Shown here piece after piece: positions 32,707-35,689 of a stretch of DNA of 64,000 nt. Location: NCBI GenBank assembly GCA_009914755.4, contig CP086569.2, positions 26,848,001-26,912,000 on the forward strand, written 5' to 3'. Both the position numbers and the translations under genes were made by a program. This DNA comes from the human T2T-CHM13v2.0 reference genome, Homo sapiens. Below the pieces are notes generated by a model. It saw nothing but the letters and a program-made list of their open reading frames with translations, was not told the origin of the DNA and ran no database searches. The first letter of the stretch is position 1, and each line of letters opens with the position of its first letter.

Positions 32707-32718
32707 AAGACACATTCA
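32707..32718. repeat. Target-site duplication (left copy) 'aagacacattca' of the twin-primed L1
   Basis: Identical 12-mer at 33537-33548. Confidence 0.85.
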
Positions 32719-33536
32719 TTTTCTTAATCCAGTCTATCATTGTTGGACATTTGGGTTGGTTCCAAGTCTTTGCTATTGTGAATAATGCCGCAATAAACAT
32801 ACGTGTACATGTGTCTTTATAGCAGCATGATTTATAGTCCTTTGGGTATATACCCAGTAATGGGATGGCTGGGTCAAATGGTATTTCCAGTTCTAGATCC
32901 CTGAGGAATCGCCACACTGACTTCCACAATGGTTGAACTAGTTTACAGTCCCACCAACAGTGTAAAAGTGTTCCTATTTCTCCACATCCTTTCCAGCACC
33001 TGTTGTTTCCTGACTTTTTAATGATTGTCATTCTAACTGGTGTGAGATGGTATCTCATTGTGGTTTAGATTTGCATTTCTCTGATGGCCAGTGATGATGA
33101 GCATTTTTTCATGTGTTTTTTGGCTGCATATGGCACATATACACCATGGAATACTATGCAGCCATAAAAAATGATGAGTTCATGTCCTTTGTAGGGACAT
33201 GGATGAAATTGGAAATCATCATTCTCAGTAAACTATCACAAGAACAAAAAACCAAACACTGCATATTCTCACTCATAGGTGGGAATTGAACAATGAGATC
33301 ACATGGACACACGAAGGGGAATATCACACTCTGGGGGCTGTTGAGGGGTGGGGCGAGTGGGGAGGGATAGCATTGGGAGATATACCTAACGCTAGATGAC
33401 GAGTTAGTGGGTGCAGCGCACCAGCATGGCACATGTATACGTATGTAACTAACCTGCACAATGTGCACATGTACCCTAAAACTTAAAGTATAATAATAAA
33501 AAAAGAAAAATGTTCACACACACACACACACACAAA
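32719..33536 (+). mobile_element. L1 insertion with 5' inversion (twin priming): inverted segment 32719-33130 (minus strand, ORF2 C-terminus) plus direct segment 33131-33512 (3' end and poly-A), followed by a (CA)n tail 33516-33535
   Basis: The inverted segment starts at the reverse complement of 'ggattaagaaaa' and the direct segment starts at 'tggcacatatacacc', which are adjacent in L1 coordinates. Minus ORF 32678..33058 is L1 ORF2. A 12-bp target-site duplication flanks the whole insertion. Confidence 0.9.
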
Positions 33537-35689
33537 AAGACACATTCAGTATCTGTCTTATAAAAACGTTATGCATAATGTGTATGCATAATGTGGTGTG
33601 CCAATATACATATGTTGATGTGTATTGTGTATGCCTTCCAGCTGTAGTGAAATTTAGCTCTTCACCAATCATCAGTGACTGAATTTTCTTTCTTGGGACC
33701 CCAGAAACTTAGACTGTCTACAGTTTCATTTGCTATATTAGCGTTGCACAGAAATTATTAAAATGTAATGAGAAAGAAAAGGGGAGAAATATAAACTCTA
33801 TGGTTTAGCTTCTAATCATAAATCAACATAATTGACTTCACCCCATTTATCTCAACTTGAACAACCAAATTTTTCAAAAGCTTCTTAACATCTCTGATTT
33901 ATAAAAAACACAGATTGGGTTAAGAAACCTTGAAAATATAATATCAGAAAGTTCTACATGTACGCCTTTCTTTACAATTTTCAGAAGATATAGTCCAACG
34001 CTATCAATTTTTTATAGGCACCTGAGACTCTAGATATTAAAATACTTAGATTTTAGAATATTTATCTTCATTTCTAGCATCTAACCACTAGATGCTAAAA
34101 GCAACCTTAAGAATTCCACTCCCAGTCATGAATCAGGCTTAGAGTAAAATCTATTGATCTATAGAAAACCCTAGAAAATCACAAGGAATGTGTGTCAGCT
34201 CCATGAGCTCATCAATAATTGTTCCCCTTCCACACTATGCTTCAGCCACGGTGATCTTGCCATTTTTCCTAACACGATAAGCAGGCTTATGCCAGGAGTC
34301 TTTACACTTTTTGATCCTACTGCATAATTACAGGCTTATTCTCTTGTTCTTTCATTTAGGTATTGACAGTCTCCATGTAAGCAAATTATTTTATAAGTTT
34401 TTTATATACAACCAAAACGTACTTGGTAATATAGAATCCTGCCTAATGTATTTTATATGGAATTGATAACCTCACTTAAGAACAAAGCAAAAGCAAAACA
34501 AAGCCGGCTTTATACTATTACCACCTAATATTCAGGAATCCAAATTAGTAGATTGACTTATTTTACTCAACGTTAGTAACAGGTAAAATTATAAATCTTC
34601 TAAATATAAATAAACTCATGTGAAAATACAATTATCGCTTCATAAATAACAAGTAATTAAAAAAATTGTCTAGACCTTGGAAACCAATAATTATTTATAT
34701 CAACCAATCAAAGAGTTAATCAAGAAAGACAAGTTGAAACCGCTGGGAAATTTTTTGCGGTCTTTGCATTCAACCATCCAGGCACAGATGACGTTTCAAA
34801 AGTTAAATTCCACATTCGCAAAGTGAGGCTGGGATTTCTGATCTAGGAAGGTGTGAAGAATAATGTCTGTGCTAATTTATTGAGTTTGTTCTACCCTTTA
34901 GGGGTTACATAAATTATTGATGAGGCACACTTATCTCTGTTTTGTCTGATGCAGAACTGATTTATAGTTAAAAATGTTAAGCACAGGTAACTAACATTTA
35001 AGTCCTGGGAGCAAAGGATACCGTTGATGTATAAAATAGACAACGTGTAAAATAAAGTAAAAGATGAATAGATCTTTATTTCAAAAAAAATCTTGACTTT
35101 CAAAAGTATTAAAATAACCTGAGGTATTTAAAAACTTAGTTACATAAACATAACAGAAGATATTTTCAAAAATGCGCAAAACTCTAAGCATTAATTCAGA
35201 AAATTAGCTATAATTTTAATGTGAGAAGAAAGTGAAGGCTAACGCAGAATTTTAAGCTATCTCCCTACATGATAAAGGGGAGTGTTAATACAGACCCAAT
35301 TTTAAAAATTGATATTTTTATATTACACTCTGTCAAAACGCTGTTGGAATTCCAGCTAAGCCTTAAACAACAAAGGGCACATCTTGAATAAATAAAGAAT
35401 ACCTGACTATCAGAGTTAACATGTTATAATATTTTAAATATAGCATTCTAAAAAATAAAAGCACAAAAAATCCCACAAATTTATGGCTAATGTGAAGTAA
35501 AAACACAAACTGAAACTGTCCTAAACTTTTTAGACAAAAACTTTAAACCTGCAGTTTTAAGTATGAACAAATAAAAAATGACAGATGAAAGATAAAAGAT
35601 CAACATGGGAATATCAGTGAGATTGGAACAGGAATTAAAAGAAATTAAAGAATGTGTAAGCAGAAACTCAGTTGTATGTAAGAAAACCA

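Follow-up and report, generated by a model that had tools for sequence, protein, structure and literature searches.

How did two pieces of one L1 retrotransposon come to lie in opposite orientations between two copies of the same 12-bp sequence? The question is raised by a locus at 32707-33548 of a 64,000-nucleotide stretch of the human T2T-CHM13v2.0 reference genome (contig CP086569.2, positions 26,848,001 to 26,912,000; hereafter the window, numbered from its first letter). The order on the plus strand is a target-site duplication (TSD), antisense L1 descending from an L1 position X, sense L1 from X+1 to the end of the element, an A-tail, and the second TSD copy. The insert at 32719-33536 is very probably the product of one retrotransposition of a primate L1PA element by twin priming. 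The locus is an ordinary member of a well-described and very common class, the twin-primed L1, and its kind is already known. Its features are as follows.

32707-32718, plus strand: 5' TSD copy, AAGACACATTCA; it ends in CA (32717-32718), the reverse complement of the TG of L1 that is lost between the pieces
32719-33130, minus strand: inverted L1 ORF2 fragment of 412 nucleotides (nt), ORF2p residues 1086-1222 and the first base of the Met1223 codon; predicted to be the complementary DNA (cDNA) primed on the top strand (cDNA 2)
33131-33289, plus strand: direct L1 ORF2 3' end, Trp1224 to Asn1275 with the stop codon at 33287-33289; predicted start of the poly-A-primed cDNA 1
33290-33504, plus strand: L1PA 3' untranslated region (3'UTR) with its own A-tract; AATAAA at 33495-33500, A7 at 33498-33504
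33505-33534, plus strand: non-L1 block G-AAAAA-TGTT-(CA)10, read as a probable short 3' transduction or inherited tail tag
33535-33536, plus strand: terminal A-run, a putative second poly-A remnant; two A, or at most four with the first two A of the TSD included
33537-33548, plus strand: 3' TSD copy, AAGACACATTCA

Two opposed pieces of one L1 within a single target-site duplication

The structure of the L1 pieces and their L1 coordinates are directly seen. Exact copies of the 12-mer occur at two places only in the window, at the two edges of the insert, and they agree at 12 of 12 positions. The perfect 12-bp TSD described in a first-pass annotation of this DNA is thus borne out. The match does not extend to the left (T versus A), and on the right it breaks after base 12. 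The chance of a 12/12 repeat at both outer edges is 4^-12 per position pair, or about 1e-4 when tens of bases of slack are allowed on each side. Self-comparison of the window gave an L1-like span of 32717-33510, which is the span between both 12-mers minus the tail, and the limits previously given to the element match these bounds.

The possibility that the TSD is itself L1-derived sequence was considered and rejected: when the flanks were compared with the window by BLAST, they were unique except for a separate upstream L1 ending near 32033. That L1 (31418-32033) is an older fragment in the same orientation, about 670 bp upstream, and it breaks off within the 3'UTR without an A-tail. The sole near match to the TSD in the window, AAGACACATGCA at 31731 (one mismatch), lies inside an unrelated L1, where it is an internal ORF2 motif; its likeness to the TSD is coincidental.

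The reverse complement of 32719-33130 is read in one frame into 137 residues, interrupted by a single stop at about residue 1107. Over their full length these align with positions 1086-1222 of human LINE-1 ORF2p (8sxt_A, 1275 amino acids), and 132 of the 137 residues are identical (E=2e-92). The 412 nt correspond to 137 codons and one base, the additional base being the A with which the Met1223 codon begins. The inverted ORF2 segment that had been proposed at these positions is thus confirmed to the base. The outer (left) end of the piece is its highest L1 coordinate.

The direct piece opens at 33131 with TGG and encodes residues 1224-1275 up to the stop codon (49/52 identical, E=2e-27). It then continues through the 3'UTR to the AATAAA. 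A direct segment with poly-A had been placed at 33131-33512; its start and its L1 identity hold, whereas its end does not, since L1 and the A7 stop at 33504. Both pieces are comparably diverged from human ORF2p, as the two identities show. Neither of them has a TSD of its own, and the inverted piece has no poly-T at its outer end.

To place the breakpoints, we used three uninterrupted L1 copies within the window as references: 40241-41031 (plus strand), 31418-32033 (plus strand), and 25301-24530 (minus strand). All three read GGATyAAGrAAATGTGGCACATATACA across the breakpoint. When the two pieces are set back in order against these copies, exactly TG is absent. The distance of about 2 nt in L1 coordinates that was estimated at first is therefore correct to the base, and the suggested check for adjacent breakpoints, run against ORF2p and the three window copies, returned neighbouring positions.

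The left junction, as the reverse complement, reads GGATTAAGAAAA-TG-AATGTGTCTT. The CA at the end of the 5' TSD is the complement of the missing TG, which gives a 5' junction microhomology of 2 nt. Since the missing TG is the reverse complement of the TSD end, the two pieces abut exactly, with no gap and no overlap, once the microhomology is counted. A length of 2 nt falls within the modal class of 2-5 bp (PMC2912911).

The inversion junction reads GGCTGCATA followed by TGGCAC and is without microhomology (0 nt), since the reference copies allow no extension of either side: on these, the inverted side would run on with AAATGTC, and ...AAAATG comes before the direct side.

The first-pass annotation had called the locus a case of twin priming and not of later rearrangement. 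Both parts are supported. Two opposed pieces of one L1 share a single TSD, and along L1 the inverted piece immediately precedes the direct one. Furthermore, the 3'-most L1 coordinate of the inverted piece touches the 5' TSD, and this piece carries no A or T tail.

Probable order of events and other origins of the two pieces

The empty site was reconstructed by removal of the insert and one TSD copy. Its top strand reads ...TTTTGTATCAT, then AAGACACATTCA, then GTATCTG..., and the right flank is GTATCTGTC. This reconstruction places the first, bottom-strand nick at 5'-TCTT/ATGA-3', which matches the TTTT/AA consensus at four of six positions. Exact flank patterns gave no match in metagenome and prokaryote-genome contigs, which are collections that do not contain this host locus. 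For the two open reading frames (ORFs) that span the junctions, a look-up returned no exact-sequence record, and for the ORF predicted on the empty allele, no homologue was found in the protein collection.

On the established model of twin priming, the steps are inferred to have been as follows. L1 endonuclease would nick the bottom strand at 5'-TCTT/ATGA-3', and the A-tail of the L1 RNA would anneal at the nick and give rise to cDNA 1. In the template RNA, some 30 nt not belonging to L1, G A5 TGTT (CA)n, would have stood between the short A-tract of L1 and the true poly-A. The top strand would be cut 12 bp downstream, after ...ATTCA, and the freed 3' end would pair as CA:UG at the Met1223 codon within the same RNA. 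There, cDNA 2 would be primed and extended 412 nt upstream to residue 1086. cDNA 1 would halt at the Trp1224 codon, the RNA beyond being already occupied by the second primer. The cDNA ends would finally be joined blunt without microhomology, and fill-in of the gaps would produce the 12-bp duplication.

The features expected of twin priming were drawn from PMC2837659, PMC2912911, and PMC12016303. Twin priming gives rise to about 20-30% of young L1 insertions. Among recent L1 insertions, 5' inversion is seen in 18-31% (PMC12016303, PMC2912911), and thus the event is common; for human- and chimpanzee-specific L1s the proportion is about 31% (PMC2912911). Of 605 human- and chimpanzee-specific 5'-inverted L1s, 95% showed microhomology at the 5' junction, and in about 70% it was 2-5 bp long (PMC2912911). 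The cDNA ends were at most 20 bp apart in 46% (PMC12016303), and inversion junctions without microhomology do occur (PMC2837659, PMC2912911).

The locus was compared with the twin-primed, 5'-inverted L1s of Ostertag and Kazazian (2001), as they are presented in these three papers. The layout with a single TSD and the 2-nt microhomology at the 5' junction are the same. The TSD of 12 bp and the pieces of 412 and about 370 nt lie inside the reported ranges. No essential difference from those cases was seen. The gap is 0-2 nt here, whereas larger deletions or overlaps are present in many known cases; the locus also differs in that its inversion junction has no microhomology and its endonuclease site is TCTT/AT, not TTTT/AA.

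Several points weigh against a single twin-primed event. A 5' microhomology of 2 nt has a chance of 1/16 and is no proof by itself. An inversion junction without microhomology is allowed but less common. The nick site TCTT/AT is plausible but not canonical, being none of TTTT/A, TTTT/G, or TTTC/A (PMC12016303). Finally, the case for one event is made from the structure and from the commonness of the mechanism.

The first alternative is that two L1 RNAs took part, one primed on its poly-A from the bottom strand and the other primed internally from the top strand. Such dual priming has been proposed for similar architectures (PMC2837659), and one RNA and two identical RNAs are not separable by sequence alone. 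However, two RNAs give no reason for cDNA 1 to stop beside the base at which cDNA 2 was primed; over 6 kb, a coincidence within 2 nt is expected about 1 time in 1000. Moreover, both pieces are equally near to human ORF2p, and no subfamily-diagnostic differences were seen between them. We consider this origin very improbable. The exact abutment of the pieces favours one RNA molecule over two, and over two separate insertions.

Slightly less credible still is a later inversion, in which a 5'-truncated L1 of about 0.8 kb was inserted first and its first 412 bp were flipped afterwards. Flipping these 412 bp in place yields the same sequence order. However, one breakpoint would have to fall exactly at the boundary of L1 and TSD and leave the 12-bp TSD intact, and the other would have to drop just two bases, those complementary to the TSD end. 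No pre-existing inverted repeats are present to mediate the inversion, and 5' inversions arise directly in new insertions at 18-31% (PMC12016303, PMC2912911).

Two independent L1 insertions side by side in opposite orientations, to which a window rich in L1 (at least five other L1 fragments) might seem favourable, are effectively refuted by the lack of poly-T and of an own TSD in the inverted piece, by the one 12/12 TSD that spans both pieces, and by the abutting L1 coordinates.

If the pieces arose by twin priming in one event, as we think very likely, the locus is a clean textbook case with all three junctions at base resolution. Its significance beyond annotation is slight. The insertion could serve as a presence/absence marker in primate phylogeny.

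Repeats were observed around the inversion junction. At 33121-33134, TGGC stands on both sides of the junction (TGGC-TGCATA-TGGC). The predicted 3' end of cDNA 1, GCCA, is complementary to the first TGGC, and the formed junction makes no use of this 4-nt homology. The inverted cDNA ends in 9 nt, TATGCAGCC (L1 sense, 33122-33130), of which a second copy stands in the direct piece, 24 nt from its start (33155-33163). In the longer alignment, TTTTTTGGCTGCATA (33116-33130) is an inverted repeat of TATGCAGCCATAAAA (33155-33169), perfect over 9 nt and matching at 14/15 positions overall. The plus strand can therefore form a hairpin of 9 bp, or of 15 bp with one mismatch, across the inversion junction. 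Before the inversion, the two stretches would have been direct repeats in L1, in the codons of the ORF2 motifs YAAKK and YAAIK.

Recurrence of such a 9-mer would be seen at only 2/403 endpoints in the inverted piece and at 11/6144 endpoints in a longer L1-bearing stretch (about 0.2-0.5%). Snap-back synthesis, template switching, and annealing of both cDNAs were considered as causes, and none of them gives the observed order. Because the endpoint test was made post hoc, the repeat is treated as unexplained and as probable chance. It is probably a coincidence; it may also hint at non-random termination of the second cDNA.

The non-L1 block in the tail

The tail had at first been described as a (CA)n-capped poly-A tail. 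After the AATAAT of L1, it reads A7, G, A5, TGTT, a perfect (CA)10 (33515-33534), and A2-4 before the TSD; the leader GAAAAATGTT precedes the (CA)n. We scanned metagenome contigs with the 25-mer AAAAAGAAAAATGTTCACACACACA and obtained one match, on Ga0115851_108617 (L001). In the window, the 25-mer has no other match even at 3 mismatches, and the tail tag had no match in viral contigs.

L001 starts inside an L1PA 3'UTR and reads ...AAAGTCTAATAACAG-A9-G-A5-TGTT-(CA)7-A7, followed by about 3 kb of alpha satellite. The tag lies at 159-187, directly after the L1PA 3' end. Since L001 continues into alpha satellite, it represents a locus other than that of the window. Over 148 nt, the 3'UTRs of both loci share 93% identity and derived states such as GCTAGATGACGrGTTAGTGGGTGCAGCGCACCAGC and CACAATGTGCAC, which are absent from the older L1 copies in the window. 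Furthermore, the two loci agree fully in the block before the CA run (A-run, G, A5, TGTT) and in its distance from the L1 end, and a second A-tract follows at each.

The same 10-nt leader and CA run stand behind two independent insertions, each with its own A-run, and thus the block was in the RNA. We consider it likely that the tail goes back to a short "partnered" 3' transduction or to a parent element that already bore the tag, and not to a microsatellite that arose after insertion. This reading is preferred to that of a capped poly-A tail, since another L1PA, at a different locus, is also followed by G-A5-TGTT-(CA)n-A(n). The (CA) copy number, 10 against 7, has probably drifted since insertion.

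As an observation on the contig itself, Ga0115851_108617 is primate host DNA, with an L1PA 3' end (1-190) inserted in alpha satellite. Its satellite array switches orientation near 2370 (about 2360-2380).

The distances to possible polyadenylation signals were also examined. The AAGAAA variant lies upstream of the end of the CA run by 26 nt in the window and by 20 nt in L001. AATAAA lies 34 nt upstream of this end in the window; L001 reads AATAAC, at 35 nt. This hexamer spacing is compatible with cleavage and polyadenylation just after the CA run.

Retroelement A-tails are known seeds of microsatellites. The alternative to a transduction is a plain poly-A tail in which the (CA)n arose after insertion, with the likeness to L001 due to convergence. 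The CA copies, 10 versus 7, do show that the run changes in place. As in A-tail-seeded microsatellites, a simple repeat stands at the L1 3' end beside A-runs, and its copy number varies between loci. However, the repeat is here shared, together with a unique 10-nt leader, by an independent insertion, and thus both predate the insertion and did not arise in place. The identity of the preceding block at both loci, its constant offset, the second A-tract after both, and the single metagenome match of a 25-mer that finds no other match in the window at 3 mismatches are likewise not expected from convergence. An origin of the repeat after insertion is thus unlikely.

The transduction, for its part, has a known counterpart. 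In long-read work, 71% of L1 transductions were shorter than 100 bp and were typically flanked by two A-tails, this being the commonest class (PMC13009371). The tail event is thus also of a known kind. As in those short "partnered" transductions, a stretch of about 30 nt of non-L1 sequence separates the A-tract of the element itself from a terminal A-run, all within the TSD. In addition, the stretch is here found behind another L1 elsewhere, and hexamers resembling polyadenylation signals lie 20-35 nt upstream of its end. The locus differs in that it involves an old L1PA copy that looks fixed, rather than an L1HS that is somatic or polymorphic, and in that the stretch is mostly a dinucleotide repeat, which mimics a tail microsatellite.

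Three points tell against a transduction. The AATAAA spacing of 34-35 nt is slightly past the usual 10-30 nt, and it would shift with the number of CA copies first present. The reading draws on a single second locus. Finally, scans of metagenome and viral contigs did not reveal a source locus, where the block would be part of the unique flanking DNA.

It is possible, and we propose it only tentatively, that the G-A5-TGTT-(CA)n tag marks an uncatalogued, transduction-tagged L1PA source lineage whose progeny include the twin-primed copy and the alpha-satellite insertion. If this were true, the progeny would be traceable genome-wide in primates, and a source-to-offspring pedigree of an extinct L1PA master element could be drawn. 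In an old L1, a short 3' transduction can pass for a simple-repeat "tail", and repeat annotation usually lists such tags as a separate (CA)n microsatellite. Tail tags may thus be too little used as markers by which old L1PA copies could be assigned to their source elements.

Age of the element and its surroundings

Against human ORF2p of the solved structures, the element has eight differences in 189 residues. Three of these (K for N1212, L for V1141, and M for I1241) are states common to the older L1 copies in the window, and thus the element predates the modern human L1 lineage. The other five are private decay, including the stop and a CGC-to-TGC change. When the ten differences from L001 were polarised on the older copies, about 2-3 private changes per 148 nt were assigned to the window copy. 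The 3'UTR carries GAG at a position where the human Ta subfamily presumably has ACA. Judged from the sequence, these states suggest a young-to-middle-aged L1PA element that predates the human Ta subfamily.

A 13-bp sequence, TATGCATAATGTG, is perfectly duplicated in tandem (33570-33595) in unique DNA of the right flank, 22 bp past the 3' TSD. It is partly palindromic with the preceding ACGTTATGCATA.

An Rfam scan of the window gave no structured-RNA family at the gathering threshold. The Alu and several L1 fragments in the window represent an ordinary AT-rich primate context. Within 39036-41193, an L1 3' portion runs out at about 41031 in a tail that is A-rich or (AAAT)n, and an Alu fragment (41041-41193) follows directly after it. 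Further L1 blocks are at 24522-27978 on the minus strand and at 37248-37973, the latter of about 75% identity and much older. A further Alu, at 14137-14414 on the minus strand, is 92% identical to an Alu consensus.

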